From a virus (taxonomy: Duplodnaviria > Caudoviricetes), in the IMG/VR virus record IMGVR_UViG_3300048852_000125, positions 1-45,751 of that record: a DNA stretch of 45,751 nt; one strand, 5' to 3'. Positions 3,056-22,707 of this stretch are shown one piece after another. Position numbers and translations under genes: made by a program. The notes beneath the pieces were generated by a model. The model saw only the letters and a program-made list of their open reading frames with translations, was not told where the DNA came from and did no database searches. How positions within the stretch are numbered: position 1 is the first letter of the stretch; each line of letters opens with the position of its first letter.

Positions 3056-4776
3056 TACGCGGCCTCCTTCCGGCTCTTCTCGGCCATCACCTCGCCCAGC
3101 GGTCTGGCGATGCCGCCGTCGATCCAGTAAGCCCGGCCCATGCCGCGCGCCTCCAGGTCCGGCACGACGTCGGGCGCGGAGAAGGTCATGCCGATCAGCG
3201 CGTCCATGCCGGCGCCGCGCAGCATCTTCAGCAGCCCGCCGCGGCCTTTCTGGTCGAGCACGTCGGCGCCATCCAGGATCACCAACTCACAACCCTGCAC
3301 CTGGGCGAGGGCGACCTGCAGGGTGGCGTAGACCCGGAACTGGTCGGAGGAGAGCTGCGGCCCCAGCCCGGCCAGCTGCTCGTAGGGACGGCCGCCATAT
3401 GTGACCCCCATGTCCGGCTCGATGCGAACATCTCCCCAACCGGCTGCCTCGCACAGGCTGCGCAACGGCCCGCCGTTGAAGGTGTCCAGCACCTTCACCA
3501 GCTTCGCCTGCCGCAGACCGCCCGGCGCCATGATCGCCTGCATGGCGAGGTTCACCGCCAGCAGGTTGGCGACCCGGTCGGCATCCTCCTTGGCCTTCAG
3601 CGCGCGGTGGCGGGCCTCGGCGGTGGAGACGCGGGCGCGCAGGGTCTCGACGTCGTCTCCCGGCTGGCCGCCGGACGCCTTCTTCCGCAGTTCGGTCAGC
3701 TGCCGCTCCGCCTGCTGCGCCGCCTGATAGGCGCGCTGCGCCTCGGTCGCGGTCCGCTCGGCACCGTCCCGCTCGCCCTTCAGCCGGGACAGCTTGCCGT
3801 CGGCCGCGGCGATGGCGTCCCGCCGCTTCTTCAGTTCGTCGTCGCCGATCTGTTCGGCCTGCACCAGCTTCTGGTCGGCACCCATGTTGTGGGACAGCTG
3901 GAGGGCGGCGTTGCAGCAGGGGCAGGTGAGGCCTTTCGCCTGGGCGGCCGGCGGCAGGGCGTCCCGTTCCCGCTGGGCGGTGCCGTAGGCGGTGGTCGCC
4001 CTGGTCGCGACCATCTGCGCCTCGATGGAGCGCTCCTTCAACTCGTCGATCTCGGCACAGGCGGCGGTCAGCCGGTCCAGTTCCGCCTGCCCGACGGCCG
4101 CCGCGGCAATGGCGCGCTCCAGCTCCTGCTGCACCTCGCCCATCTCGGCCTGCAGGTCGTCCAGAGACGCGCCATCGAGATCGTCGGTCCAGCCCTCCGG
4201 CCGCCACGTCCGCGCCTTCTCGGTGCCGAACCGTTGACCGGTGACCAGTTCCCACTGCCCCTTCAGCTTGGCGCCCTTGTCGGCGACCTCCGCCGCCTTG
4301 GCGTCCCAGCCCTTGCCTTCGATGTCGCTCCAGACCTGGGCGGCGATGGCCTCGCTGATCGAGGCGTCGGTGCAGGCGGCGACGAAGTCGGCGCGGTCGG
4401 GCGCCGTCTTCAGCAGTTCGGCCAGCAGCTTCGCCCGGTCCTTGGCGGACAGGTCGAGCAGGCTGGTCAGGCCGGCAGCGATGGGCGTCACCGTCGGCGG
4501 CTGGCCGGCGGTGGAGGCCTCGCACTTCGGCCAGGCGGCGCCAGCGGTCCAGTCGGTGCCCTGAACCGCGGCGGTTGCGGTGCCGGCGCCGGCCCGCACC
4601 AGCGCCTTGGCATCCTTCTTGGCCAAGCCGAACTGCAGCTGGCCAGTCAGCGCGGCGGCGGTCGCCTTCAGTACGCTCGACTTGCCCTGGGCATTCTTGC
4701 CGGTGACCAGCACCAGCCCGCCGGCGAGGAGGTCGGCGCGCTCGACCACCTGGAAATCACGGATCCTGACCTGCAT
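3055..4776 (-). CDS. SbcC/Rad50-like ABC-family ATPase
   Basis: Walker A GKNAQGKSS, coiled coils with central CPCC zinc hook, signature-like LSSDQ, Walker B LVILDGAD. Confidence 0.8.
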   Translation of the reverse strand: MQVRIRDFQVVERADLLAGGLVLVTGKNAQGKSSVLKATAAALTGQLQFGLAKKDAKALVRAGAGTATAAVQGTDWTAGAAWPKCEASTAGQPPTVTPIAAGLTSLLDLSAKDRAKLLAELLKTAPDRADFVAACTDASISEAIAAQVWSDIEGKGWDAKAAEVADKGAKLKGQWELVTGQRFGTEKARTWRPEGWTDDLDGASLDDLQAEMGEVQQELERAIAAAAVGQAELDRLTAACAEIDELKERSIEAQMVATRATTAYGTAQRERDALPPAAQAKGLTCPCCNAALQLSHNMGADQKLVQAEQIGDDELKKRRDAIAAADGKLSRLKGERDGAERTATEAQRAYQAAQQAERQLTELRKKASGGQPGDDVETLRARVSTAEARHRALKAKEDADRVANLLAVNLAMQAIMAPGGLRQAKLVKVLDTFNGGPLRSLCEAAGWGDVRIEPDMGVTYGGRPYEQLAGLGPQLSSDQFRVYATLQVALAQVQGCELVILDGADVLDQKGRGGLLKMLRGAGMDALIGMTFSAPDVVPDLEARGMGRAYWIDGGIARPLGEVMAEKSRKEAA

Positions 4777-8325: not shown

Positions 8326-8640
8326 ATGTCGGTGCTTTTAAGGGTTGTCGCGGTTCTCGAACTGCTGGGCGGACTCATTTGGGCTGGCGGGTTCCTGCTC
8401 GCCGGCCGGGACTGTGGTCAGTTCATTTCTCACGCACCCACCTACCGTGCATGCATAGAGTCCGCCGGGCCGCAGGCCGGCGCATGGCTTTCTGCAATCG
8501 CCATCGTGCTGTGCGCGACCTTCGTCGCATTGGTGTTCTTTGCCTTAGCCACCGTGCTCGATCGAACGGAGCAGAACCGTCAGATGCTTCAAGCGATCCA
8601 AGCACGCTTGGGAGAACCAGGGGCGGCAATCGCAGAATAA
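8326..8640 (+). CDS. Two-TM membrane protein (cargo)
   Basis: GAGGA RBS; two hydrophobic helices with a Cys pair in the loop. Confidence 0.65.
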   Translation: MSVLLRVVAVLELLGGLIWAGGFLLAGRDCGQFISHAPTYRACIESAGPQAGAWLSAIAIVLCATFVALVFFALATVLDRTEQNRQMLQAIQARLGEPGAAIAE

Positions 8641-8795
8641 ACGCAGACAACCTCCCCGCCCGCGTGGCATCCGCTGCGGTGGGGGAGTTAAGGGAGAACA
8701 CCAATACACATGAAGTTGTCGATGACGCAGCAATGCTTCAGCACAAGCCGTGCCTAGAAAAAAACAGCATACTTAGGAAAATCTGGAGGAAATCT

Positions 8796-9977
8796 ATGGC
8801 GCGTCTGGTTGCCAGCGGAGCTACATCGATAAGTACTGACAGCATCAGCCTGTCGAGCTTACTGTATGGAACAATAACGGTCGCCAATAGTGGGTTCATT
8901 TCCGTGAACTACGGAGGTGGAGCGGCAACCGAGTTCTACGGAAGCTTTAGCTATGACGCCAGTGGTCGGAACATCACGGGCGGAACGTTGGGCGCAGTCC
9001 GCGAACTCGCGAACGGCTCCTTGCTCTACACCCTCGACGGGATGAGCGTATCCGCACCCGTGTTCGTTGGATGGGTTAACAACGGTCAGACCGCCACCGC
9101 CCGCGCCACGATCCTCGCTGGTTCGGATACGATCTATGGGTCCGATTATGGCGACACGTTGCGGGCTTATGCAGGTGACGACACCATTTATGGAGCAGGA
9201 GGAAACGATCTCCTCGATGGTGGGACTGGCGTAAATCTCATAGACGGCGGCGCAGACACAGACACTGTTGCGCGCAGTGCGTCTCGCTCGTCGAGTGCGG
9301 TTGTCAGTTATGCTGGTCACATCTATGTCGGAGATGCTGGCGGCTACGACAAACTTGCCAATGTCGAGTACATCAGATTTACGGATCAAACCGTTTCGGT
9401 TTCTACCGCACCAGCTTTTGACCCTCTATCGTATCTGGCGGCGAATACCGATGTCGCCTCTGCGGTGGGCGTCAACCCAGGGGCAGCGCTGAATCACTAC
9501 CTGACCGCTGGTGGGCGTGAGCGGAGATCGACGGCGTTCAACGTCGACGGCTACCTGGCCTCGAATCCCGATCTCGCTACTGTCTTCGGGGCGAACACTG
9601 CAGCGGCCACCCAGCACTACATCACGGCAGGGCGACTGGAAGGGCGCAACACGTCCTTCAACGTGATGAGCTACATCGCCGCGAACCCAGACCTGATCGG
9701 GGCGTTCGGCGCCAACACCACCGCGGCCGCTCTCCATTACGCAACCGCCGGGCGCCTAGAGGGGCGGCCGTCCACCTTCAACACGGCGGCCTATCTGTCG
9801 CGCAATCCGGATGTGCAGCGCGCCCTCGGCACCAGCGAGTTGGCTGCCGCTACGCACTACGTCACCAACGGCTACCGGGAAGGCCGGTCGGCGACGCCGC
9901 TGGCCTCAACAAGCACTCGCTCCGCGATGGGGCTAGAGTCTACCCAGCAGAGCACAACGCTCGCTGCCGGTTGGTAA
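8796..9977 (+). CDS. RTX/hemolysin-type Ca-binding protein with C-terminal 40-aa repeats
   Basis: GGAGG RBS; nonapeptides such as IYGAGGNDLLDGGTGVNLIDGGADTD; D.L.NVEYI.F.D; four F(D/N)xxxY(L/I)xxNxD repeats. Confidence 0.8.
   Translation: MARLVASGATSISTDSISLSSLLYGTITVANSGFISVNYGGGAATEFYGSFSYDASGRNITGGTLGAVRELANGSLLYTLDGMSVSAPVFVGWVNNGQTATARATILAGSDTIYGSDYGDTLRAYAGDDTIYGAGGNDLLDGGTGVNLIDGGADTDTVARSASRSSSAVVSYAGHIYVGDAGGYDKLANVEYIRFTDQTVSVSTAPAFDPLSYLAANTDVASAVGVNPGAALNHYLTAGGRERRSTAFNVDGYLASNPDLATVFGANTAAATQHYITAGRLEGRNTSFNVMSYIAANPDLIGAFGANTTAAALHYATAGRLEGRPSTFNTAAYLSRNPDVQRALGTSELAAATHYVTNGYREGRSATPLASTSTRSAMGLESTQQSTTLAAGW
9417..9896 (+). repeat. Four 120-bp coding tandem repeats
   Basis: Units start at 9417, 9537, 9657 and 9777 (FDPLSYLAANTD, FNVDGYLASNPD, FNVMSYIAANPD, FNTAAYLSRNPD). 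Confidence 0.85.
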
Positions 9978-10006
9978 CTCGACGCTCGGTGAAGCTGGAG
10001 GATGCA

Positions 10007-10201
10007 ATGGCGGCGCGTCTAGGGTTCGTCCTCCATCTTGCCGGCTGCGGCTCGTCGCTGTTGCTGCTGATCACCGGGCTTGTGGCCGCCCTGGACATGT
10101 CTGTAGCCGATGCTGCTCCTGCCGCGTGGGCGCTTGCCGCAGCTGCTGGGGCGACGTGGCTGGTGGGGTGGGCGGCGCTCTATGTGCTGGCCGGCCGGTA
10201 G
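10007..10201 (+). CDS. Small two-TM membrane protein
   Basis: GGAGGA RBS; 64 aa, almost fully hydrophobic. Confidence 0.6.
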   Translation: MAARLGFVLHLAGCGSSLLLLITGLVAALDMSVADAAPAAWALAAAAGATWLVGWAALYVLAGR

Positions 10202-10209
10202 GAGCTTTC

Positions 10210-10518
10210 ATGATCAACAACCTGCGCATCGCCTACTCAGCGGTCTTTGTCGTCGCGACCTTCCTGCTGATCGCCGGCGCCGCGTCAGCGCGCGATGCCC
10301 GTCCTTCCGACGACGAGGTGCGTCAGCGGATCATCGCGGAGTCGATCGCGTCGTATCCGGGCAACTGCGCCTGTCCCTACAGCACGATGCGGAACGGGCA
10401 CCGTTGCGGCGGTCGGAGCGCCTACAGCAAGCCGGGCGGACGGGCGCCGATCTGCTATGCCTACGATGTGACAGAGGCGATGGTCGTGCGGTGGAGGCGG
10501 GCACATGGGGAGCGTTGA
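10210..10518 (+). CDS. Secreted 4-Cys protein of unknown function
   Basis: Signal peptide (..AGAASA); SIASYPGNCACPY...RNG..CG.RSAYSKPGG..PICY..DV motif. Confidence 0.7.
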   Translation: MINNLRIAYSAVFVVATFLLIAGAASARDARPSDDEVRQRIIAESIASYPGNCACPYSTMRNGHRCGGRSAYSKPGGRAPICYAYDVTEAMVVRWRRAHGER

Positions 10519-10580
10519 ATATTGACCTACTCCATGTGCCAGTATCCGACTTAATCCAGCATCATACAGGAAGCCACACC

Positions 10581-11411
10581 ATGTCAGCTGTCTATGCCTC
10601 TACCTCACCAGTCTGGTTTTCACATCTTGCATCTCTAACGAATACTCCAGGGCGCGTCGCGTTTTGGCGTCCAACATATAATGTTCCGAAGTCCATTGCG
10701 GTTGGTGATCCTTGGTTTTTCAAGGAATGGGGTGGACACATTGTCCTCGGTTATGGACGATACGTGGAAGATGAAAGAACCACGCCTTCAAAGCTATGGG
10801 ATAAGTTCGGTCCCGCCTCTGGGGCTCCGACTCGCGAGGCCCTTGTGGCCGCCATCAGCGCGGCCAAGAATGGCGGCGCAACGCCAGATACAGAAATCGG
10901 AAACGTTTCTCTGTCAGATTTCACGGTTTTTCGGCCTGGCCTCTCACTTGCTGAGTTGGATTTGCCAAACCTGTCTGTGCCTTGGCGTTATGTTCCCGCG
11001 GGCAGCCGCTTACTGACCTACGCTGAAAGGCTCTCGCCTGCCCCTGAAGGCCTTCCTGCTGGCCTGCCCTACACCGCGCCGGCGCCAGCCAGTCGACGAG
11101 AACTGCGAGGGGAAACTTTTGCCCGCAACACTGGACACGTGGCCGAAATCAGGAGCCTGTATGGTGGCCGGTGCCAAGTCACTGGGGACGCAGTTTTGCA
11201 TGGGGTCGCTGGCGATCTTACTCAAGTTCATCACATCGATTTCCTATGCAATGGCGGTGTCGATCACCCCTCCAACATGATCGCGCTTTCCCCAAATTGG
11301 CATGCGATCGCCCATGCTCCGGGTACAACCTTCGACTGGCAGACTCTAGAGTTCGTCGTGGGTGAGCAGCGGTTCGGCCTCGCGCTAAATCAGCATTTAA
11401 AGCCACGCTGA
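10581..11411 (+). CDS. HNH endonuclease with a putative PUA/EVE-like N-terminal recognition domain
   Basis: N-term WF..L...VAFWRP...GDPWFFK...GYG; C-term YGGRCQVTG...QVHHI...GG.D..SNMIALSPNWHAIAH. Confidence 0.7.
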   Translation: MSAVYASTSPVWFSHLASLTNTPGRVAFWRPTYNVPKSIAVGDPWFFKEWGGHIVLGYGRYVEDERTTPSKLWDKFGPASGAPTREALVAAISAAKNGGATPDTEIGNVSLSDFTVFRPGLSLAELDLPNLSVPWRYVPAGSRLLTYAERLSPAPEGLPAGLPYTAPAPASRRELRGETFARNTGHVAEIRSLYGGRCQVTGDAVLHGVAGDLTQVHHIDFLCNGGVDHPSNMIALSPNWHAIAHAPGTTFDWQTLEFVVGEQRFGLALNQHLKPR

Positions 11412-11567
11412 ACATGTGCGGTCTAACAGTCGTTGGGATCAAGCGCGAGTGCGTGCCGCAGGAGGCCGCGGGCGCGATTGTTGACGTGCTGGCGAGGGTG
11501 ATGAAGAGGCTGGGGTGAGGTTAAAACAAATGATGAAAATAAAAAGTAAAAAAGCATAGGAGGTAGC

Positions 11568-12506
11568 GTGGCTGAGCGTTTGAAGCACACCTTCGGTGGT
11601 CCGTGGACGGAAGAGAAGCTTAATTGTTTGGAGGAATATCTCAAGTCTTATTTAAGCGTAATGAAAAATCAGAGTTTCAGACTAGTATATATCGATGCAT
11701 TTTCGGGAACTGGGCAGAGGTATTCAAGGGAGGCGGAAAAAGACAGATCTGATCTTCTTCGCCAGGAGATGTTTGACCTCGCGACCGAGCATGCGGGCTT
11801 TTTTGAAGGCTCAGTTCTGAGAGCGTTGAAGCTCAGCCCTGGCTTTGAAAACTTCGCTTTGATTGAGAAAAGTAGTGCTAAGGCGTCGCAACTTCGCGAA
11901 TTGAAAGCGGAATACGAAGGTGGCGGGCGTACAATTAATGTGCTTGAGGGGGATGCAAACGAGCAGATCATGCGCATCTGCTCTCAAGGGGATTGGACTG
12001 GGAGAAAGACTAATCGCGCCTCTCGAGCTGTGCTCTTTCTCGATCCTTTTGGTTGCCAAGTTGATTGGACCACATTGCAGGCCATTGCGCACACGCGCGC
12101 GATCGATGTCTGGTATTTGTTCCCATCTGGCCTGGGGGTGTATCGCATGCTGACCAGCCGCCAAGACAAGATGGCGCAGAGCTGGGCTGAGCGTCTGGAC
12201 TTGTGCCTTGGCACAGGAGAGTGGCGAAATGAATTCTTTAGAGAGGAATCTACGCAAGATTTATTTGGAGAGACAACGATAAGCAGAAATAAAGTGGCGA
12301 CAATCGACACGGTCGAGAGATTTTTTATTAGACGTTTATCTTTGTTGTTCCCGCATGTATCAAACGCTTGCCTTCCTTTGAAGAATAGTAGAGGATTCAA
12401 AATGTTTTCGCTGTGCTTCGCTGCGGCGAACCCAGGCAGAGGCGGGCAGATTGCGGTAGGCATTGCCTCCCATCTCTTAGGGAAAGGGAGGCGAGGGAGA
12501 AAGTAG
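11568..12506 (+). CDS. tcmP: Three-Cys-motif partner protein (SAM-binding methyltransferase-like)
   Basis: FGGPWTEEKL..LEEYL, YIDAFSGTG, GDAN, FLDPFG.QVDW motifs; AGGAGG RBS; adjacent DUF5131 gene. Confidence 0.85.
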   Translation: MAERLKHTFGGPWTEEKLNCLEEYLKSYLSVMKNQSFRLVYIDAFSGTGQRYSREAEKDRSDLLRQEMFDLATEHAGFFEGSVLRALKLSPGFENFALIEKSSAKASQLRELKAEYEGGGRTINVLEGDANEQIMRICSQGDWTGRKTNRASRAVLFLDPFGCQVDWTTLQAIAHTRAIDVWYLFPSGLGVYRMLTSRQDKMAQSWAERLDLCLGTGEWRNEFFREESTQDLFGETTISRNKVATIDTVERFFIRRLSLLFPHVSNACLPLKNSRGFKMFSLCFAAANPGRGGQIAVGIASHLLGKGRRGRK

Positions 12507-12512
12507 GGCACT

Positions 12513-13265
12513 ATGGCCGAGAGCAGCATTGAGTGGACTGACGCAACTTGGAATCCGATTGCGGGCTGCACCGTCATCTCCCCGGGCTGTACCAACTGCT
12601 ATGCTATGCGCATGGCGGCCCGATTGGAGAAAATGGGGCAGGAGAAGTACGTCGGCACGACGCGCCGCTCCGGTCGCAGAGATATCTGGACCGGCAAGAT
12701 TGCTGTTGATGAGAAAACGATCTTGGCACCGCTGGATTGGCGATCGCCACGGCGCGTCTTCGTCAACAGTATGTCTGACCTGTTCCACGAGGCGGTGCCG
12801 GAAGAGGCGATCCGGCGCATCTGGCATACGATGGCTCGCACGCGGCGTCACACCTATCAGATCCTGACCAAGCGGCCGGAGCGGATGGCCGAGCTTTCCA
12901 AGTCGTTGCCGCTTCTACCGAACGTCTGGCTCGGCACCAGTGTAGAAAGCGCCGATTATGAATTCCGACTGAATCATCTGCGCGAGACGGCCGCCGTCGT
13001 GCGCTTCGTCTCGTTCGAGCCGCTGATTGGAGCGATTCCAAACCCGAACCTTAAGGGCGTTCACTGGGCTATCGTTGGTGGCGAGTCCGGTCCGGCGGCT
13101 CGACCGATGGAGCAGCTATGGGTCGATGATCTGCTGGAAGCCTGTCAGGAACAGGGCGTCGCCTTCTTCTTCAAGCAGTGGGGTGGGACCAACAAGAAGG
13201 CAGCGGGTCGCGTTCTCCGCGGCAGAACCTGGGATGAATATCCCGGTGCGAGACCGTCAGTATGA
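12513..13265 (+). CDS. DUF5131 / phage Gp37-Gp68 family radical-SAM-like protein
   Basis: IEWTDATWNPIAGC..ISPGCTNCYA, FVNSMSDLFH, LTKRPER, SFEPL, GGESG, FFFKQWG. Confidence 0.92.
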   Translation: MAESSIEWTDATWNPIAGCTVISPGCTNCYAMRMAARLEKMGQEKYVGTTRRSGRRDIWTGKIAVDEKTILAPLDWRSPRRVFVNSMSDLFHEAVPEEAIRRIWHTMARTRRHTYQILTKRPERMAELSKSLPLLPNVWLGTSVESADYEFRLNHLRETAAVVRFVSFEPLIGAIPNPNLKGVHWAIVGGESGPAARPMEQLWVDDLLEACQEQGVAFFFKQWGGTNKKAAGRVLRGRTWDEYPGARPSV

Positions 13266-13290
13266 AGTTATGCTTTGCATGAACTTTATA

Positions 13291-13313
13291 CCCGCCGGGT
13301 ATGAACCGGCGGG
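13291..13313. terminator. Hairpin between convergent genes
   Basis: CCCGCCGG-N7-CCGGCGGG; no clear U-tract. Confidence 0.45.
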
Positions 13314-13438
13314 CCTCCATAAATAGGCGAATTCGAGTAAATATTCTGACGCTGATAATAATTAATCCTTCGGTATTGCTGGTTGTCTTGGAAAATATTT
13401 AGTTGGTGACGGCAATTCACAATTTGAATTTTGGATGT

Positions 13439-14026
13439 TCAATTCTTTTTTGAAGAAACAAATCTTGTGCATTCGAAATATTTCTGGATTGCATCGCCGA
13501 ATCCAGACAGGCCGACCTGATATGTGTCGCTGCCACTGCCTTTTAGATTTATCACGATCTTCTTAGAAGAAAAAAACTTGCTGAAAAAATCCTCAAGCTT
13601 CACGAAATCCATAATATACAGACTTGGAGGATTTCCAAACTGTTTCATGTCTTTCAAATCTATTCCGTTTGCGGTCCCGGAGTAGACCAACTTTCCACCA
13701 ACTTCGATAGTAACACTTCTGTCGCGGACATTTTGAAGATTATGACCAGATAAAGATATTCTCACCCCGTCGTCTGACGGAATGACTGAAACTTTCTCTC
13801 CGCTCTTCGTAAAAGCGTGAATGTCACATAGAGACATATTTCTGTTGGCGAATTTATTAACCTCTTCGGCGGCAATCTTAGCTACTACCTCCCACTGACC
13901 ACCGGAAAAATACATGAACTCTTGCTGGGCTCCAGCAGCAAATACCATTTCTCGAGCTTCCATAAAAGAGAAGCAAAAGAAAGCAATGCCAAACAGCGCG
14001 TATTTCGACTGATACTTCCGCAACAT
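13439..14026 (-). CDS. AT-rich exported hypothetical protein
   Basis: 195-aa ORF in AT-rich DNA, N-terminal hydrophobic segment, AAGGGG RBS. Confidence 0.6.
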   Translation of the reverse strand: MLRKYQSKYALFGIAFFCFSFMEAREMVFAAGAQQEFMYFSGGQWEVVAKIAAEEVNKFANRNMSLCDIHAFTKSGEKVSVIPSDDGVRISLSGHNLQNVRDRSVTIEVGGKLVYSGTANGIDLKDMKQFGNPPSLYIMDFVKLEDFFSKFFSSKKIVINLKGSGSDTYQVGLSGFGDAIQKYFECTRFVSSKKN

Positions 14027-14247
14027 ACTGCCCCTTGGAAGGAATATTTTGATATAGCTGGCGAGGGTACCTCAGAATCAAAGCGCGATAGCCATATAAT
14101 GTCTCATGACAGATAACCGCTAGATGCGTCACGCTATTCAGCATATTTCAATACTTTGATAAATTCTCTAAGGTTGGAGGGCAGCATTTACATGTTCCCT
14201 AATGGGGCTTGTCCGCCACCGAGCCGGCGGGCTTTCTTGTGCCCACC

Positions 14248-14502
14248 CTAGCCGAACGGGTTCTCCACCTCGTCCGCAGGCTTCGGCGGTGCGATCCGAT
14301 CCGGCAGGCTCTTGTCCGCCTCCAGCGCCGCGACGGCCGCGTCGACCAGTGCCTTCAGCTTCCGGGCCGCCACCAGCCCAGCTTTGTCCCGCGTGATGTC
14401 CAGGTTGCCGTAGACCGCGATCTTGTCGGTCCCGTTCTCGACGGTCAGGCCGCCGATCCCGATGCTGTCGGCGTCATTGGCGAAGGGCTTGATGGTCGTC
14501 AT
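14248..14502 (-). CDS. Small hypothetical protein directly downstream of the nuclease
   Basis: GAGGA RBS; 84 aa; starts 11 nt after the nuclease stop. Confidence 0.7.
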   Translation of the reverse strand: MTTIKPFANDADSIGIGGLTVENGTDKIAVYGNLDITRDKAGLVAARKLKALVDAAVAALEADKSLPDRIAPPKPADEVENPFG

Positions 14503-14513
14503 GGTGATCCTCG

Positions 14514-15353
14514 TCAGCGCAGGAGTTGCCGCAGATAGTCCAACACGCCCTTCTCCGGAATCGGCTCGGCCTGGGCGGCAGTCTTGCCCTTTCCGCGTGG
14601 CTTCGGCTGCGGCAGGTCGAGCATCGCCGCCTTCGTTGCCGCTGGCAATCCGGGGAAGGGGTCGATACCGGCGACCTGCGTCAGCTCGGCGATCGACACC
14701 CGCTCGTAACCGGCATCCTCCTGGTTCGCAGCGAGGTAGGCCGCGGCCTTCTTCTGGCGAGGATCGTACACCGCCTTGAAGACGTGGCTCGGGACCAGCA
14801 CGCGCCCACCGATCCGCTTCAGGTTCTGGCCTTGGAAGATTGCCCCTGTGACGACATAGACCTCGCCTTGCCGGCGAGTCAGATCTCGCGTCGCGGATTC
14901 GATCCCTTCCCAGATGCCCCTGTTCAGTGCGCCGGCCTGCGGCACCATGTTGGCGAGGCTGAAGCTCTCGTTCTGCGACCGTGCGTCTGGCATGTCACCA
15001 CTCGGCGCCATGTGCCCGCGGTCATAACCTGAGCGTTTGTAGTCGGCCAATTCGGCACGCTCATCCGGCGGCAGGCGGCTCTCGGCGTGGAAGGTGTTCT
15101 TGCGATCCAGACCCTGCTGGCGCTCCAGCCGCTCGCGCGTCAGGTGCTCGGCCGCCCATAGGCCGGTCCGCGTCACGCCGGAATGGAGGAGGCCGTAGCC
15201 GCTGTTGCACAGCTCCCGCGTTTTAGCCGCCAGTTTCGTATTGACGAGATCGGGCGCTTGCCCAGACGCGAAGTGTTCGGGGCATGCTGTTTCAGCGGCG
15301 AGTGCGGTGACTGGTGCAAGGGCGAGCGCCAGGATGGCGACGGCAAGCTTCAT
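14514..15353 (-). CDS. Secreted DNA/RNA non-specific endonuclease (NucA/Serratia family)
   Basis: Signal peptide MKLAVAILALA...; SGYDRGHMAP, ESFSLANMVPQ...NRGIW...E; AGGAG RBS. Confidence 0.92.
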   Translation of the reverse strand: MKLAVAILALALAPVTALAAETACPEHFASGQAPDLVNTKLAAKTRELCNSGYGLLHSGVTRTGLWAAEHLTRERLERQQGLDRKNTFHAESRLPPDERAELADYKRSGYDRGHMAPSGDMPDARSQNESFSLANMVPQAGALNRGIWEGIESATRDLTRRQGEVYVVTGAIFQGQNLKRIGGRVLVPSHVFKAVYDPRQKKAAAYLAANQEDAGYERVSIAELTQVAGIDPFPGLPAATKAAMLDLPQPKPRGKGKTAAQAEPIPEKGVLDYLRQLLR

Positions 15354-15530
15354 CGGGTTCTCCTGTCCGCATTCCAGCGTCACGGCCGCGGATCTGCAAG
15401 ATCGCACGAGGCCGGCAGACCGCCAAGAGAGGACGGGAGCATTCCGATGGCCGCGCGTTCGGTAATAGTTTGACTTTTCAGAAAAATGCGAACTGCACCG
15501 TTAGGATGCAACTCGACGGCTTGCGGGAAT

Positions 15531-16249: not shown

Positions 16250-16477
16250 ATGACCCAGGCCGAACATATCATCTCGAAATTCGGTGGCGTGAGCGCTCTC
16301 TCTCGGAAGCTCGGTCACAGACACCCCACCACTGTGGACGGTTGGCGCCGCCGGGGATGGATACCGGCTGACCAGCAACCCCGTGTGCTTGAAGCGGGGC
16401 AAGACCTCGAACCTCCGATCACGCCAAGCGACTTCTTCTTCGCGGTGTCGGCACAGCGCACCAGCGAGGCCGCCTGA
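16250..16477 (+). CDS. cro: Cro-like HTH protein
   Basis: IISKFGGVSALSRKLG...TTVDGWRRRGWIP; divergent from the repressor. Confidence 0.8.
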   Translation: MTQAEHIISKFGGVSALSRKLGHRHPTTVDGWRRRGWIPADQQPRVLEAGQDLEPPITPSDFFFAVSAQRTSEAA

Positions 16478-16698
16478 TGCCCATGCACCAGTGCGCCGTC
16501 TGTCACCTGACCGATGAAACCCGCACCGTGACCGGCCCGCGCGCACCGCTGCCCTGCGCCTGCAACGCTGGGCTGGTACAGCCGGTCCGCGTGTCCGCCC
16601 CGGCCACCCGCCGCGGCGCCAATGCCTTCGCAGCCCTGGCGGAGACGCAGGACGCCTACACGGTCCGCGTTCCCCTCCCGGTCCCCGCCAGAAGCTGA
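16477..16698 (+). CDS. Small Cys-containing hypothetical protein
   Basis: TGATG coupling to cro; CxxC...CxC. Confidence 0.55.
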   Translation: MPMHQCAVCHLTDETRTVTGPRAPLPCACNAGLVQPVRVSAPATRRGANAFAALAETQDAYTVRVPLPVPARS

Positions 16699-16710
16699 CC
16701 CCCAAACGCA

Positions 16711-16749
16711 CGAAAGCCGGCCCCGCTTCCCAACGTCGGCCGGCTTTCG
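16711..16749 (+). terminator. tR1-like hairpin
   Basis: CGAAAGCCGGCC...GGCCGGCTTTCG 12-bp stem. Confidence 0.55.
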
Positions 16750-16767
16750 AACTGAGGAGAACCGCAA

Positions 16768-17352
16768 GTGTTGAGCCCCGATTCCTGCTCCCAGAACTAC
16801 ACCGGCGGCGGTGCCGTCGTCCAGTTCACGAAGGGCGAGCGTCCCTTCTCCATTCGGCAGAACGCGGACACCCCTGCCACCACTTCCGTTCAAGGCGGCG
16901 GTCTCGCAGTCTACGAGCGTGACTACTTGGCCGGCCTGCTGGCGTCCCTGCCGGTCCGCTCGCTCGCTGACATGATCAGCGTGCGCGATGGTGTCGCCAC
17001 GATCCGCGCCGCCGTACCCCTGCACCTGCTGTCGCTGGAGGATGCCTGCACCCTTCAAGGGCTTGCCGCCGGCGGGAGCATGCCCGTGCCGTCCAATGTC
17101 GCGCCGATCCCCCAACGCCGCGCGAAGCCGGAGGTTGCTGCCCAGCCACTGCCCACGCTGACCGACCGGCAGCGGGAAATTCTGCAGCTGCTCTGCGCCG
17201 GCAAGTCCAATCGGGAGATCAGCACCGCGTTCAACCTCACCGAAGGAACGGTGAAGGTGCACGTCTCCGCGATCCTCAAGGCGCTGGGCGCGCTGAACCG
17301 TACCCACGCCGTGATGATCGCCCGGCGCGTGCTGGCCGTCGGGGAGGTCTGA
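16768..17352 (+). CDS. LuxR-type HTH regulator with unrecognised N-terminal domain
   Basis: LTDRQREILQLLCAGKSNREI...LTEGTVKVHVSAILKALGALNRTHAV; GAGGAG RBS. Confidence 0.85.
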   Translation: MLSPDSCSQNYTGGGAVVQFTKGERPFSIRQNADTPATTSVQGGGLAVYERDYLAGLLASLPVRSLADMISVRDGVATIRAAVPLHLLSLEDACTLQGLAAGGSMPVPSNVAPIPQRRAKPEVAAQPLPTLTDRQREILQLLCAGKSNREISTAFNLTEGTVKVHVSAILKALGALNRTHAVMIARRVLAVGEV

Positions 17353-17355
17353 GCC

Positions 17356-17739
17356 ATGTTGGGGCGTGATCTTCATAGCGAACAAAATGGCCATGATACG
17401 CGCGTCGGTGGAGCCAAAAAGGTGTGGCGCCGCCTGACAATCGCCGGACGGAAAATAGCCGGTGCGCGCCGCGACGCCGCGCAGAAGCTGGCCCGCGAAC
17501 TGCGGGACTACTTCAAGGCCAAGCACGGACGGAAAACGTCCGCTTGCATCGCCGACGACTATGCCGTCACCGACCGTCAGGCCCGCCGCTGGCTCGCCAA
17601 GGGTCCGACCTTCGACGGCTTCGCCCTGATGCTGGAGCGCGAGCGCGACCGCCTCCTGCACTGGCTGGCCGTCGCCTATTCCGAACGCCGCCGCCGCTTC
17701 CGCTGGCGCCGCAATTCCTCCGTATCCCCCACCCCGTAA
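17356..17739 (+). CDS. Basic HTH-like protein (CII-like position)
   Basis: IADDYAVTDRQARRWL HTH-like segment; operon packing. Confidence 0.5.
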   Translation: MLGRDLHSEQNGHDTRVGGAKKVWRRLTIAGRKIAGARRDAAQKLARELRDYFKAKHGRKTSACIADDYAVTDRQARRWLAKGPTFDGFALMLERERDRLLHWLAVAYSERRRRFRWRRNSSVSPTP

Positions 17740-17748
17740 GGAGCCATC

Positions 17749-18564
17749 ATGGCAAGAGGTCGTCGTTCCTCCGGAAGCAAGCCCAGCAAAGCGGAACAGC
17801 TCCGCGAACGCGCGAGGGGCCTGCAGCCCAACCAGTTCTTCGATTTTCTGGACGAGGTCTCGACCAAGCGTCAGGACCTCGCCGACGCCAACACCGAGCA
17901 TGCGTCCGCCTGGAAGAAGGCCGACGCGCTGGGCATCCATCCCCGCGCCGCCAAGCAGATCGCCCGCCTCGACAAGATGGACGCGGTGAAGCGGGCGGAC
18001 GAGCTGCGCAGCTTCGATCAGATGCGCCTCTGGATGGCGGAGCGCTGGGGCGGTCAGCCGGACATCTTCGAGCAGCCGGCCACGCCGCTGGAGGAGGCCA
18101 TCGAGCGTACGGGCAGCAGCGACGAGCCGCAGGCGCTGGGCGACGTCGTCCGTCAGCTGGTGGAGGGCGCCGACGAGGATGCCGGGCCGAAGCCGCTTTA
18201 CGACGTCGCGTCCCCGCCGGACCTGCCCGGTCAACAGAACGAAGCCGCCGGTGCTCCGGAAGCCGACTGGGGCGAGGACGGCGACGCCGACGCCAGCCCC
18301 GAACTGGATAACGCTGGCTACACCTTCGCCAACGGCCGCACCGCTGGCCGGCAAGGGCACGGGCCAGAGATGAACCCGCACCTGGAGACCTCGCCCTCCC
18401 ATGCCATCTGGGAGCGTGGCCGCGTTCAGGGCACCAAGGACGGCGACGGCGACGACGACCTGCTGGAGGCGGTCAGCGACGATCCGCCCGAAGAGGAGGC
18501 CAAGCCGCGCAGCCGGCGCCGTTCCCGTGGCACCGACGCGGCCACGGCCGCGGCCGTGCACTGA
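17749..18564 (+). CDS. GapR(DUF2312)-like domain + acidic linker + RMF-like motif
   Basis: AAGGAG RBS; AWKKADALGIHPRAAKQIARLDKMDAVKR and FANGRTAGRQG...NPH...WERGRVQG. Confidence 0.55.
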   Translation: MARGRRSSGSKPSKAEQLRERARGLQPNQFFDFLDEVSTKRQDLADANTEHASAWKKADALGIHPRAAKQIARLDKMDAVKRADELRSFDQMRLWMAERWGGQPDIFEQPATPLEEAIERTGSSDEPQALGDVVRQLVEGADEDAGPKPLYDVASPPDLPGQQNEAAGAPEADWGEDGDADASPELDNAGYTFANGRTAGRQGHGPEMNPHLETSPSHAIWERGRVQGTKDGDGDDDLLEAVSDDPPEEEAKPRSRRRSRGTDAATAAAVH

Positions 18565-18574
18565 GGGCGGGCGG

Positions 18575-19099
18575 ATGGCCGGCGGCGTCCTCGCCCTCGA
18601 CCTCGCCACCCACACAGGGTGGGCATTGGGGCGGCTGCCACGGCAGCCGCTTCTCCCGATGGAGGCGCGGTTCCAGAAGCCGCCCAAGCCGCTGTCCGGC
18701 TGGGTTCGTTTCGGCCATCCCGGCTGCTCGGTCGGCGAGTTTGCCGATGCGGCCGAGGCCTGGGGCCGCGCCTTCCTCACCGAACACCAACCGTCGGGCC
18801 TGATCTATGAAAAGCCGATCCTGCCCGCCGACACCAATCCCGAGACGATGCTGAAGCTGAACGGCTTGGCGACGATCATGCTGATGCTGGCGCACCGCTT
18901 CAGCATCCGCTGGGTCCGTACCGCTCAGCCCTCCACCGTCAAGAAATCATTCTGCGGCCGTGGTGGCCCCGGCAAAGAGGGAGTGCAGGCCGAGTGCATG
19001 GCGCGCGGGTGGCAGTTCGCCACCGACGACGAAGCCGACGCTCTGGCCCTTCTCGACTACGCCGGTCACCTCGCCGCCAAGGAAAGGGCAGGCCGATGA
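18575..19099 (+). CDS. RuvC-like Holliday junction resolvase
   Basis: VLALDLATHTGWA, IYEKP, PSTVKK...G...K..V, DEADALAL. Confidence 0.8.
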   Translation: MAGGVLALDLATHTGWALGRLPRQPLLPMEARFQKPPKPLSGWVRFGHPGCSVGEFADAAEAWGRAFLTEHQPSGLIYEKPILPADTNPETMLKLNGLATIMLMLAHRFSIRWVRTAQPSTVKKSFCGRGGPGKEGVQAECMARGWQFATDDEADALALLDYAGHLAAKERAGR

Positions 19100-20568
19100 G
19101 CGCCATCGTTTCCGGGCAGCATTCCCTCTTTGCCGACACAGGCCCCAAGCGGCCCACCCTGCGCCCCTATCAGGAGCGCGGCGTCGCCGAAATCCTTGCC
19201 TGCCTCCAGCGCCGCAAGGATCCGCTCTATGCGCTGCCGACGGCCGGCGGCAAGACGACGATCTTCACCGCGGTGACAGAGGTGGTGGTCGGGCAGGGCT
19301 GGGAGGTTTGGATCATCGTCCACCGACGGGAGCTGCTGCGCCAGGCCAGTGAGCGCCTGCTGGCGATGGGCATCTCGCATGGTCTGGTCGCCCCCGGCGA
19401 GCCACTGACCAACGACCCGGTGCAGGTCGCCAGCGTCGACACGCTGCTGGCCCGGATGGACAGCCTGCGCCACCGCCTCACCAAGGTGCGGCTGGCCATC
19501 ATCGATGAAGCGCATCACGTCGTTGCGTCGAAGTGGCAGCGCGTGCTGGAGGCGATGATCAACGCCCTGCGCCTGGGCGTCACGGCCACGCCCTTCCGCT
19601 ACGACGGCAAGGGTCTGGGCGAGCATTTCCGGCAGGCGATCGAGGGGCCGAGCGTCGCCGAACTGATCCGCGACGGCTATCTCGCCAAGCCCGCCATCTT
19701 CGCGCCGCCGGCGAACCTCGACCTGTCGAAGGTGAAGAAGCGGGGAGGGGACTATGTCGCGGCGGATCTCGCCAAGGCGGTCGACACCGACGAGCTGACC
19801 CTGCCGGCGGTCCGGCACTATGCCCGCATCTGTGGCGGCGTGCCGGCGGTGGTGTTCTGCGCCGGGGTGGAGCATGCCCGTCACGTCGCCCAGCAATTCC
19901 AAGCCGGCGGCTGGGCGGCGGCTTCCATCGACGGCGAAATGACCACAGCCGAACGAGACCGGGCGATCCGGTCTCTCGCCACCGGCCGCCTGTCGGTGCT
20001 GACCAGCTGCGACATCATCAGCGAAGGCACCGACCTGCCGATCGTCGGGGCGGCCATCCTGCTGCGCCCGACGGAATCGACCGGGCTCTACCTGCAGCAG
20101 GTCGGTCGCGTGCTGCGCACCTATCCGGGCAAGAGCGAGGCCATCATCATCGATCAGGTCGGCAACGTCGCCAAGCACGGCATGCCGGACGAGCGGCGGC
20201 TGTGGTCGCTGGACGGCGGGCTGAAGGGCCTGGAGCGCGCCGTGACGGCGACGCGCCGCTGCCGCTATTGCCACTTCGTCTGCGCCAAGGGGCCGGCCGC
20301 CTGCCCGTACTGCAACAAGGCCTATCCCAAGCCGCCGGTGGCCGCGGTGCCGGAGGTGGCGCTCGCCACCATGCCGGGGATCGCGGGGCTCTCTGCTGAC
20401 CGGATCGCGCGGATGAAGCTCTGCGACATCCTGCCGTTGGCCGAGACCGAGCAGGACCTGCGGCAGGTCGCCGCCATCAAGGGCTACAAGCGCGGCTGGG
20501 TTCAGCGTGTTCTCGAGGAGCGCGCCGCCACCACGGCCCGCGGCTACATGATGCGGAGGTACGCATGA
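19096..20568 (+). CDS. SF2 DEAH-box helicase with C-terminal zinc finger
   Basis: LRPYQ, PTAGGKT, DEAHH, TATP, SEGTD.P, QQVGRVLR, CRYC...CPYC. Confidence 0.92.
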   Translation: MSAIVSGQHSLFADTGPKRPTLRPYQERGVAEILACLQRRKDPLYALPTAGGKTTIFTAVTEVVVGQGWEVWIIVHRRELLRQASERLLAMGISHGLVAPGEPLTNDPVQVASVDTLLARMDSLRHRLTKVRLAIIDEAHHVVASKWQRVLEAMINALRLGVTATPFRYDGKGLGEHFRQAIEGPSVAELIRDGYLAKPAIFAPPANLDLSKVKKRGGDYVAADLAKAVDTDELTLPAVRHYARICGGVPAVVFCAGVEHARHVAQQFQAGGWAAASIDGEMTTAERDRAIRSLATGRLSVLTSCDIISEGTDLPIVGAAILLRPTESTGLYLQQVGRVLRTYPGKSEAIIIDQVGNVAKHGMPDERRLWSLDGGLKGLERAVTATRRCRYCHFVCAKGPAACPYCNKAYPKPPVAAVPEVALATMPGIAGLSADRIARMKLCDILPLAETEQDLRQVAAIKGYKRGWVQRVLEERAATTARGYMMRRYA

Positions 20569-21314
20569 CCTCCACCGCTTGGCCCTTCGGCGCCCTGACC
20601 CCGTTGCGCTATGGCGTGATCCTGGCCGATCCCGCGTGGACGTTCGCCTACAGACCCACGCTCCACATCCATCTAACGATGCCAAAAAGCTCGTCGGCGG
20701 TAGCGTCTCGCTTGAGGTTGTTGCACCTCCAGCAGATCAGGGCGACGTTCCCAACGACATATCCGTCAATAGGACGGATGCGGTCGATGCTCGGCGAACG
20801 GTCATTTGGACCGACATGGTCGCGCTTCCAGCCAACGTCGAATGGCCGATTGCAGCATGGGCAATCGGGCTGTTGGCGGAGCCATTCAAGTAAATACGCC
20901 GTCGTCAGCGTATCGGCATCAAAGGGAATCCCGGCATTTCTGGAGCGCTCTCTCATGCCTTGCCGCATCATCTTGGCGCGCTCCTGGAATGGCGCTCTCT
21001 CCATCGCTTCGCGGCGCTTGATCGCATGCTTTTCGGAGTTGCGTGTCGCGTGCAACTCTCGCCGCCTCATCAGTATTCGTTCTCTATTCTTTACCTTCCA
21101 TGCGGACAGATTTTTACGTGAACAATTCCGACAAGTACCGGTTATGCCGCCGCGGCACTGCTTGCTTAGCGTAAAGAATTCCGCAGTCGCAGTAAATTCT
21201 ACGCCGCACTTCTTGCAATTCTTTATGTCCATGAAGGGAATCTACCGCCCGTTAATCTTTGAGCGAAACAAATTCTGGGGCAACGAGACCACGAAATTCG
21301 AGGCCGCAGCATGA
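20565..21314 (+). pseudogene. MT-A70 adenine methyltransferase remnant: both ends retained, core replaced by an antisense HNH gene
   Basis: N-term WPFGAL....YGVILADPAW.F (DPPW-type motif) and C-term WGNETTKF; middle is the reverse complement of 20648..21232. Confidence 0.75.
20648..21232 (-). CDS. HNH-type (homing-like) endonuclease with zinc-finger N-terminus
   Basis: CKKC...CRNC; CPCC...PSIDRI.P..GY..GNV..ICWRCNNLK; lower GC than flanks. Confidence 0.8.
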   Translation of the reverse strand: MDIKNCKKCGVEFTATAEFFTLSKQCRGGITGTCRNCSRKNLSAWKVKNRERILMRRRELHATRNSEKHAIKRREAMERAPFQERAKMMRQGMRERSRNAGIPFDADTLTTAYLLEWLRQQPDCPCCNRPFDVGWKRDHVGPNDRSPSIDRIRPIDGYVVGNVALICWRCNNLKRDATADELFGIVRWMWSVGL

Positions 21315-21532
21315 CCATCAACACTGCCCCCGGTCTCCTGAAGGCCGCCGGCGTCGCCCGTAGCCGCGCCAAGCTACTCCGCTCCACCACCAAGGGGGGC
21401 AGCGCGGCAGCCATCGCTCTGGACGATGTCGCCGCTGAATACGAGCGCATGGCCCGCCGCGCCCAGACCCGCGCCTCCCAACCCGAGCCCCTCACCAGCC
21501 CGGCAGCCGCGCCGGCCCAAGCGGCGGAGTAG
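21311..21532 (+). CDS. Small hypothetical protein
   Basis: ATGA coupling, GAGG RBS. Confidence 0.6.
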   Translation: MTINTAPGLLKAAGVARSRAKLLRSTTKGGSAAAIALDDVAAEYERMARRAQTRASQPEPLTSPAAAPAQAAE

Positions 21533-21537
21533 CACCC

Positions 21538-22707
21538 ATGTCGACCGACCACCTTCCAGATCCGCTGGTGCCTGCCGAGGTCGATATCTCGAAGCTCGAC
21601 GGCTTCATGCTCGACACCCGCCGCGTCCTCTCCTCCGAACTGCTGGCGCTGTCCAGCGGCGACGAGTTCAAGGCAGCCGTCATCCTCTGGTGCCGGGCTT
21701 GGCAGCAGCGCCCCGCCGCCAGCCTGCCGAACAACCCGGCTATCCTGGCGAGCTTCGCAGGCGTCTCCGCCCAGCGCTGGAACAAGATCAAGGACATGGC
21801 GCTTCGGGGCTTCATCCTGTGCAGCGACGGACGGCTCTACCACCGGGTTCTGGCCGAGGACGCCATGCGGGCGTGGGACAGCCTTCTGAAACGTCACGAC
21901 CGCACGAAGAAGGCCACGGAGGCTCGCAAAAAGGGACGTGACGATGATCGTAACGATGGGCGTCAGCCCCCCTCCAACGATGCACGTAACGATGAACGTC
22001 ACGTTCAACGTGACGACGACCGTAACGACCAACGTAACGAGGTCCCAACAGTTGCGCGCGACAGGACAGGACAGGACAGGACGGGACAGGAGTTAAGATC
22101 TAAGAACGAAGAATCCTCGGCTGGCGGCAGGCCTCACGCGGGTGCGCACGAAGCCGGCCGGCCGGCCGATGATCTGGACGATGGGATTGCCGCCGTCCGC
22201 CAGGGCGTCGCCGCTGCGTTTGAGAACTGGTTCGACCTGCCAGGCCGCCCGATCAGCCCAGCCGATGGCGAACTGTTCGCCGACTGGATCGCCGCCGGTG
22301 CCGAGCGGGGCCTGTCGCCCGCCGACACCGCCGCCGCCGTACTCGAGGAGGTTCAGCGCCAGTTCCGCCAACTGGCCAGCAAGGACGCGGGTCCGCCCCG
22401 CAGCCTGCGCGCTGTGCTGGACCGGGACGTCCGCACCGCCATCGCCAACGCCCGGCCGGGCAGCAAGCCCAAGCCGCTGCCGGAGGTGCCGGAGCCCTAC
22501 GCCAGCGCGTTCGATGCCGTGGCCTATGCGCGCTGGATCGCCCCTTGCCAGATCAGCATCGCCGACGGCACCGCCACCGTCCTGGCCCCAAGCGCTTACC
22601 ACCGCGATTGGCTCGCCCAACAGCTCGCCGACCGGCTGAAGACCGCGCTGCAGGTCGAAGAACTCACGATCATCGTCGCCAAGGGACAGGGGAGGAACGC
22701 AGCGTGA
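21538..22707 (+). CDS. DUF1376/YdaU-type replication initiator with C-terminal DnaA-N-like domain
   Basis: LWCRAWQQRPAASLP....LA...W......AL.GF..CSDGRLYH; C-term YARWIAP...APSAYHRDWL; internal iterons. Confidence 0.8.
   Translation: MSTDHLPDPLVPAEVDISKLDGFMLDTRRVLSSELLALSSGDEFKAAVILWCRAWQQRPAASLPNNPAILASFAGVSAQRWNKIKDMALRGFILCSDGRLYHRVLAEDAMRAWDSLLKRHDRTKKATEARKKGRDDDRNDGRQPPSNDARNDERHVQRDDDRNDQRNEVPTVARDRTGQDRTGQELRSKNEESSAGGRPHAGAHEAGRPADDLDDGIAAVRQGVAAAFENWFDLPGRPISPADGELFADWIAAGAERGLSPADTAAAVLEEVQRQFRQLASKDAGPPRSLRAVLDRDVRTAIANARPGSKPKPLPEVPEPYASAFDAVAYARWIAPCQISIADGTATVLAPSAYHRDWLAQQLADRLKTALQVEELTIIVAKGQGRNAA
21937..22090 (+). repeat. Putative replication origin: 12-bp-phased CGT(A/G/C)ACG iterons plus GACAG pentamer run
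   Basis: Units at 21937, 21949, (21961, 21973 degenerate), 21985, 21997, 22009, 22021, 22033; about six GACAG/GACGG units at 22060-22090. Confidence 0.7.

Follow-up and report, generated by a model that had tools for sequence, protein, structure and literature searches.

How can a phage gene that has lost its catalytic core still be read from end to end without a single stop codon? This question is raised by a provirus of 45,751 bases (IMG/VR record IMGVR_UViG_3300048852_000125; Duplodnaviria, Caudoviricetes), here called the window, that is, the whole stretch of DNA analyzed. The record is estimated to be 66% complete and holds integrase, terminase, portal, capsid, and endolysin genes. On its plus strand, at 20565-21314, lies an open reading frame (ORF) of 249 codons with zero stops, which overlaps both the stop of the helicase gene and the next start through ATGA. 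This host frame is a composite: a stub of an MT-A70 methyltransferase, the antisense of an HNH endonuclease gene, a spacer, and the MT-A70 tail. The answer proposed here, with a probability of roughly 0.55, is that an intact inverted HNH gene, likely of the homing type and with a predicted leaderless promoter, replaces the methyltransferase core, while the stop-free host frame is likely a dummy ORF that shields the operon mRNA from Rho-dependent polarity.

What does this slot hold in other phages? Two prophages (L001 and L002), whose helicases are 95% identical to that of the window (19096-20568, plus strand; superfamily-2 DNA helicase, ResIII/Helicase_C, phrog_16, with its stop in the ATGA at the ORF start), have a whole MT-A70 of 191 amino acids in the same slot, recognized in L001 by Pfam PF05063 (E 2e-23). 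Residues 1-30 of the L001 enzyme are 80% identical to the window ORF, and residues 180-191 are 100% identical. The DNA identity to L001 and L002 ends at 20648 and restarts at 21275, and L016 and L017, which also carry an intact MT-A70 in the slot, agree; the downstream initiator region of L016 is 88% identical to the window in DNA. The N-terminal stub (20565-20648, plus strand) has 28 codons, stops just past the DPAW motif, and is 87% identical in DNA to L001/L002 in the junction alignment. It is followed by a foreign segment of 626 nucleotides (nt) with lower guanine plus cytosine (GC) content (20649-21274), delimited by the blastn ends against the four relatives, in place of 452 nt of MT-A70 core. 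The left-over native tail WGNETTKFEAAA (21275-21314, plus strand) is 100% identical to L001/L002 and marks the family's fixed right junction, the same in the homologous loci compared. The core swap is in frame, 452 nt out and 626 nt in making 58 codons more, and a search for sequence repeats at the junctions gave none that was telling.

The MT-A70 family (PF05063) has a Rossmann core running from the DPPW motif to ELFAR/WGNE; the window ORF matches only over residues 1-30 and 180-191, and its product has no Pfam match. On this alignment, the window MT-A70 is a remnant and not an enzyme. A preliminary description of this DNA had already claimed the 249-codon frame with its two ATGA overlaps, the MT-A70 origin of both ends, the lower-GC antisense HNH gene, and the death of the methyltransferase, and had proposed an alignment to prophages with an intact MT-A70; that alignment fixed the junctions at 20648 and 21275, and the claims are borne out. 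The slot between helicase and initiator looks exchangeable: in L004 (5470-6141 of that locus) it holds a different methyltransferase-like gene, with an NPPF motif and no Pfam match, which suggests that MT-A70 is dispensable.

The gene that fills the gap (20648-21232, minus strand) is intact and encodes a PacI-like HNH (beta-beta-alpha-metal) endonuclease of 194 amino acids with an N-terminal zinc ribbon. Its GC content is 55%, against 69% in the flanks. The protein matches the endonuclease VII profile phrog_1035 (E 1e-26), its fold is predicted with a local distance difference test score (pLDDT) of 95, and its best solved relative is PacI (PDB 3ldy; profile E 1.3e-5, Foldseek E 2.8e-3, 16% identity). 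The HNH core reads DR..GY..N..C..CN..K, without an active-site His and with an invariant Tyr158; the family-invariant Y158, N162, N171, and K174 and the Cys pairs are all present. The HNH/endonuclease VII profiles, these residues, and the confident model thus give the intact nuclease fold and catalytic residues expected of a free-standing homing endonuclease. The hallmarks of an intein (a splicing domain; C or S as first residue, H-N at the end, and C, S, or T after it) are absent: there is no Pfam match, and the residues at the junctions are A and Y, and F and W. As for a self-splicing intron, the insert consists of a 585-nt ORF plus 42 nt, with no room for a ribozyme, and its removal would leave a 40-codon stub, as judged from the lengths and not from an Rfam search. 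Homologues number 92 at 25-65% identity, one being the window's own call and one bearing the database name McrA. Viral contigs searched directly with the single HNH sequence gave no match, and the plasmid search gave no HNH match. As a side observation, the N-terminal zinc-ribbon spacing recurs in other proteins from 26 viral loci (L168-L194; profile 4-42 bits) that lack MT-A70, and the module seems common to other nuclease families.

Where do these HNH genes reside? Of the HNH genes in the 76 loci fetched for context, 49 directly follow an MT-A70 of the same strand and five (three distinct full-length genes) converge with one. Four further loci hold remnants or frameshifted HNH genes, and the remaining 18 comprise 13 with <65 nt of upstream DNA, one with 321 nt, and four distant matches (27-34%). 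Conversely, HNH was found in 0 of the 82 MT-A70 loci fetched through the methyltransferase. Same-strand loci, inverted loci, and the window all have their right junction immediately ahead of the WGNE codons, and a second, native WGNE tail is often present behind HNH. The insertion site is therefore fixed, with occupied and empty alleles, the latter in L001, L002, L016, and L017. In six same-strand loci (L112-L115, L119, and L122) the HNH proteins are 86-96% identical in amino acids while the methyltransferase cores share 34-50%, and the DNA likeness is limited to ELFAR..WGNE; overall, the HNH and methyltransferase identities barely correlate (rho 0.15). These six loci demonstrate that the same-strand form moves independently of its host gene, a demonstration that does not extend to the inverted core-less form. 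Because the likeness is limited to ELFAR..WGNE across dissimilar methyltransferases, and because of the second tail, the common form reads as a mobile cassette in which HNH is joined to a replacement methyltransferase 3' end and which pushes the native tail aside. Such a replacement end is absent from the window copy, where host homology reaches the HNH stop codon. Taken together, the sequences make the window HNH element very probably a homing endonuclease. The cassette replacement proposed in the preliminary description stands insofar as the core is replaced in frame, but it is not a one-off, the insert belonging to a mobile HNH family that targets an MT-A70 site. In the literature searched, which covered few subscription papers, neither an HNH family that targets MT-A70 nor an inverted form that deletes the core was found described.

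Some members of the family show further features. In the same-strand elements (L112-L122, L098, L111, L127, and L137) the HNH frame runs into the frame of the left-over MT-A70 tail in 17 of the 19 shown, many closely related, and the native stop is still used. One decayed same-strand element (L101:2939-3411, the same as L152) has an MT-A70 stub that also ends just after DPPW.F, followed by an HNH gene without its N-terminal third and then by the native ELFAR-WGNE end. In phage phiT5282EW (L165:2501-3091) a continuous family HNH of 196 amino acids follows MT-A70 but is unannotated, short hypothetical genes standing in the record instead.

Inversion occurs in a minority of elements. Six inverted loci entered the tree: the window, L163 (a prophage in a Terricaulis assembly, found by HNH homology alone), L093, L105, L109, and the partial L147. 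FastTree places them in one clade (support 0.876), while IQ-TREE on a subset sets the window apart, so that a single inversion event is not established from these trees. On the monophyly of the open-frame elements, too, FastTree and the IQ-TREE subset disagree. How would an inverted gene be transcribed? In the window, the 42-nt spacer (21233-21274, minus strand) contains a -10-like TAGATT (21239-21244), 6 nt before the HNH ATG, and a -35-like TTCGCT (21262-21267). Counted over 39 distinct full-length homologues, a TAnnnT hexamer 5-8 nt before the HNH ATG occurs in four of five inverted elements (at 6-7 nt) versus four of 34 others, three of those four being near-identical. The hexamer is predicted to be a leaderless promoter, as an inverted gene would need; a strict sigma-70 promoter and terminator scan was empty and did not report this candidate. 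Among the other inverted loci, the reverse complement of the host tail in L163 (2955-2990) gives a -35-like TTGCCC 17 nt from a -10-like hexamer, so that an HNH promoter may form at the junction; the corresponding distance in L109 and L093 is 19-20 nt. In L105, ∼30 nt of MT-A70 tail flank the inverted HNH nearly identically (2880-2915 and 3575-3610, approximate; host strand minus), like a target-site duplication. A DNA pattern of the inverted layout searched in viral contigs returned 27 loci, only one of which, the L093 contig, belongs to this HNH family.

How surprising is an open frame of this length? The three antisense frames of the window HNH contain 3, 0, and 7 stops, and the open one is out of register with the HNH codons. 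The preliminary description was right about this offset, but this is the frame whose wobble positions fall on those of HNH, and it is inherently poor in stops: 2.8 are expected, and they are possible only before Tyr, His, or Gln codons. Entry into the shuffles and counts was confined to homologues that were distinct and full-length and had an identity of 36% or more (47 in the shuffle set, 46 in a test of openness in any frame, and 30 with the SID motif). Three synonymous shuffles of HNH, a check that had also been suggested, gave a probability of 0.018-0.024 that the window frame is open, so it is seldom stop-free, a result that is weak when taken alone; with tail phase and open spacer included, P is ∼0.003. 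None of the 45 other distinct full-length homologues is open in this frame; they have 4.5 stops on average and never fewer than 1 (summed P 0.25), and all 28 other loci scored have the frame closed between residue 1 and the SID motif. Because the window P is insufficient after selection from a scan, support for the open frame was taken from relatives.

The closest parallel is L163, whose HNH is 57% identical to that of the window. Its host frame starts with an ATG overlapping the upstream stop (TAATG), runs open for 219 codons into the WGNE tail, and ends in an ATGA overlap with the next ATG; the methyltransferase core is gone and only a 4-codon stub is left. The host-frame ORFs of the two loci are 48% identical. 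At third codon positions, the two HNH genes are only 39% identical, near saturation, and the shared layout is therefore not due to recent shared descent. Could the missing core be supplied from elsewhere? None was found elsewhere in the window record (66% complete) or in the L163 genome, both incomplete, and a split gene with trans-complementation was rejected on these grounds.

A second line comes from a profile built from the two antisense frames without the methyltransferase ends and run against 1.84 billion representatives. It returned 13 matches: two self, two repeat proteins, and nine others. Five of the nine (P0103, P0107, P0108, P0109, and P0111) have 130-147 open codons that lead into a WGNE tail without a change of frame. 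Their identity among themselves and to the window and L163 ORFs is 34-51%, and P0103 matches the antisense of HNH P0002 at every position (146/146). The spacers vary in length, yet phase is kept. Inversion being the exception among HNH loci, a frame open by chance would seldom be expected to have the tail, and five in-frame tails out of nine have a rough P of 7e-6 to 6e-3 for tail rates of 0.036-0.15. Among the 13 matches there was no fusion to a whole methyltransferase, and a search with the plus-strand ORF itself gave only MT-A70 N-termini (9 of 361 candidates). The idea that the frame is open beyond chance thus gains from its recurrence in L163 and the five database ORFs and from its closure in 45 of 45 other full-length homologues, and these comparisons indicate that the host frame is probably kept open by selection.

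What would such selection act on? A sequence of steps can be envisaged. The HNH enzyme would cut the ELFAR-WGNE region of intact MT-A70 alleles and be copied in by break repair. Inversion would then leave ∼600 nt of untranslated C-rich RNA ahead of the gene for a conserved 73-amino-acid protein of no known family (21311-21532, plus strand; ATGA overlap with the open frame) and of a DUF1376 replication initiator-like gene (21538-22707, plus strand; PF07120, phrog_22470), the likely beneficiary of read-through. Untranslated C-rich, weakly folded RNA invites Rho termination. The insert contains 183 C and 155 G, and the stretch 21051-21128 (plus strand; C minus G = 12, minimum free energy -7.4 kcal/mol) is the least folded among 18 windows and, by this heuristic, a candidate Rho loading site if untranslated. 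A deletion fusing the methyltransferase start to the stop-free antisense frame would close the untranslated gap, at the price of a dispensable methyltransferase, and would at the same time remove the nuclease's own target. Polarity is slightly favored over any other reason for the open frame, and over translational coupling in particular because, in both the window and L163, a GAGG of its own precedes the next gene at a suitable distance; in the window, this Shine-Dalgarno-like motif (21300-21303) lies inside the MT-A70 tail, 7 nt ahead of the next ATG.

Is the open frame perhaps a neutral accident, a homing endonuclease having landed over a stop-poor antisense frame that a scan and the gene callers then picked? 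We regard this as unlikely, but a good deal weighs in its favor and against the polarity reading. The window frame was one picked from a scan, which makes it weak evidence by itself, and L163 is a modest test, with a probability of openness of 0.12, or ∼0.01-0.04 with phase, against 0.019 for the window in the shuffle set. Few single silent HNH changes give a stop (six sites in the window, eight in L163), and in-register antisense frames are fully open in three of 41 non-inverted genes. The core-less inverted layout with known context is limited to the window and L163, one of which was chosen for being open, and their sister relationship has a FastTree support of 0.58 and dissolves in the IQ-TREE subset. 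The five database ORFs were found through openness, which callers favoring co-directional overlaps may accentuate; their context is unseen, they are called from internal starts, and their first 45-65 codons may be closed, although callers also shorten the window's own ORFs (P0001 and P0110), so that called starts say little. Three inverted elements with an intact methyltransferase (L093, L105, and L109) have 7-8 stops in this frame and do without it. The preliminary description had proposed to look for stops in relatives with the same insert; L163 is open as it expected and these three are closed, and judging from their sequences an open frame is not a universal need of inverted elements. Openness in any frame gave p 0.036 with the window, 0.09 without it, and 0.23 for these three. 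The stop-forcing D/N-Y dipeptide is lacking in six of seven versus one of 16 in the sister group, which may be ancestral, and C-richness is common to insert and flanks. Against an accident stand the closed frames of the other homologues (none open among 45 over the full length or among 28 from residue 1 up to the SID motif), the fact that L163, the only other core-less inverted locus, is also open and in phase at both ends, the phase kept across spacers of differing length, and the five of nine database matches that end in the tail though most loci are not inverted. Two further ideas were dropped on the way. That all inverted elements keep some frame open is suggestive in L093, where a different frame, the one with the tail, has 160 open codons, and in L109, with a 155-codon ORF starting under the methyltransferase stop, but it is not significant in the any-frame test; dipeptide loss as a sign of selection was too weak, being possibly ancestral, and forced stops are also lacking in 39 of 86 other homologues.

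If selection rather than accident is accepted, what else could it serve? Ribosomes ending at TGA 21314 might have to open up the overlapping start (ATG) of the 73-amino-acid gene or begin translation anew there. In favor of such coupling are the ATGA overlaps at both window ends and the TAATG and ATGA overlaps in L163; the native tail is in phase with each of the seven open frames, same-strand HNH frames often enter that tail frame too, and the Shine-Dalgarno motif and start of the 73-amino-acid gene lie within a predicted fold. GC-rich RNA, however, folds anywhere, the next gene has its GAGG in both loci, and the initiator gene has its own GGAG with a 5-nt gap to the preceding gene; coupling is given a little less credence than an accident. 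Far more improbable is that the 249-residue product is itself a real overlapping protein, for example, an HNH inhibitor. Seven such ORFs at 34-51% identity have been called by gene callers, but conservation of the frame follows from that of HNH through the shared wobble positions, the N-termini differ (a 28-codon stub, a 4-codon stub, internal starts), and the product has no Pfam family and is not predicted to fold (AlphaFold pLDDT 47, predicted template modeling score 0.23, on a shallow seven-sequence alignment). With its residues dictated by HNH codons, the product is unlikely to matter, and the earlier suggestion of a de novo gene in the making finds no positive support. Nearly as remote is the notion that HNH is a restriction or defense nuclease, paired with MT-A70 or aimed at DNA modified by it. 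Its nearest solved relative is indeed the restriction enzyme PacI, it adjoins a methyltransferase in most loci, and one homologue is named McrA. Yet the nuclease of a type II restriction-modification pair should co-evolve with and need its cognate methyltransferase, whereas near-identical HNH proteins sit beside methyltransferases only 34-50% alike, the insertion lies inside the methyltransferase gene with a duplicated tail, and HNH is whole without any methyltransferase in the window and L163 (both records incomplete). Since the partners swap and their identities barely correlate, a restriction-modification pair seems unlikely from these comparisons.

The implications reach beyond one phage. 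The loci point to a widespread PacI-like HNH family aimed at MT-A70 genes of phages, which replaces the C-terminus of its target in a way already described in fungal mitochondria. More tentatively, and on balance slightly doubtful, an inverted lineage of these endonucleases would destroy its host gene and take over its start and stop, selection for ribosome coverage alone then preserving 150-200 stop-free antisense codons in seven or more diverged phages. Overlapping ORFs translated in this way would form a lasting reservoir for the birth of new genes. The locus also offers a testable case of an antisense overlapping ORF that is likely maintained because being translated matters and the product does not; a few HNH-silent changes introduce stops. 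Gene callers shorten or miss both overlapping ORFs, as with P0001, P0110, and phage phiT5282EW, so that these elements are easily overlooked.

The rest of the window holds other points of interest. Antisense ORFs of 821 and 539 amino acids (16315-18780 and 19066-20685, both minus strand) lie over genes of 68-70% GC and are likely the usual GC-rich shadows. An accessory gene block (8379-15407) between the recombination and replication modules includes a nuclease (phrog_14168) and several genes without known function. At the right provirus end, a 597-amino-acid protein with a dCMP-deaminase-like domain (43421-45214, minus strand; phrog_9198, phrog_174) may be the product of a nucleotide-depleting defense gene.

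How does the element compare with systems already described? The nearest precedent is the ShiLan domain, a zinc-finger HNH of ∼195 amino acids hidden in another frame of a phage methylase gene whose host frame is stop-free; the sections of that paper concerned mention no intron or intein signal, infer mobility from a patchy distribution, and propose leaderless translation (PMC11855218). The window likewise has a stop-free host frame across an out-of-frame HNH. ShiLan, as far as those sections describe it, is inserted on the same strand without loss of host sequence; the methylase stays whole, and the open frame may save this enzyme. In the window, HNH runs antisense to an MT-A70 host gene under a predicted promoter of its own, and with 452 nt of core missing the open frame saves no enzyme.

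In fungal mitochondria, mobile endonuclease ORFs accompanied by a foreign C-terminus are described for Allomyces atp6 and for Glomus atp6, atp9, cox2, and nad3 (PMC3630166). In the passages concerned, these elements consist of a replacement host 3' end plus endonuclease with the native 3' end displaced behind, the same layout as the common form of the HNH family; they differ in being LAGLIDADG or GIY-YIG enzymes in organelles with essential host genes left whole, and no inverted or core-deleting form appears in those passages. Inteins with antisense endonucleases also exist (bioRxiv 10.1101/2025.01.02.630785). There, too, the endonuclease lies on the opposite strand or in another frame beneath a translated, stop-free, unfolded host frame, but protein splicing requires that frame to be open, whereas the window has no splicing domain and nothing to rejoin.

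Free-standing phage enzymes, such as T4 seg/mob and Aeh1 mobE in nrdA, carry out intronless homing (PMC2988022). According to the parts of that source concerned, their cleavage sites may be far from the junctions, they must suit host transcription, segD is antisense, and some split their host genes, all of which recalls the window; the split genes keep their function, and those parts include no stop-free antisense overlay. R.PacI (PDB 3ldy), reported to use Tyr in place of His (PMC3384342), is the best match in sequence and fold, though a weak one, and the window HNH with its invariant Tyr158 also lacks the active-site His; it differs by a long helical arm and by behaving as a mobile element. 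Set among these systems, the window element resembles homing endonucleases but lies antisense and destroys its host gene, and selection likely keeps the host frame open.

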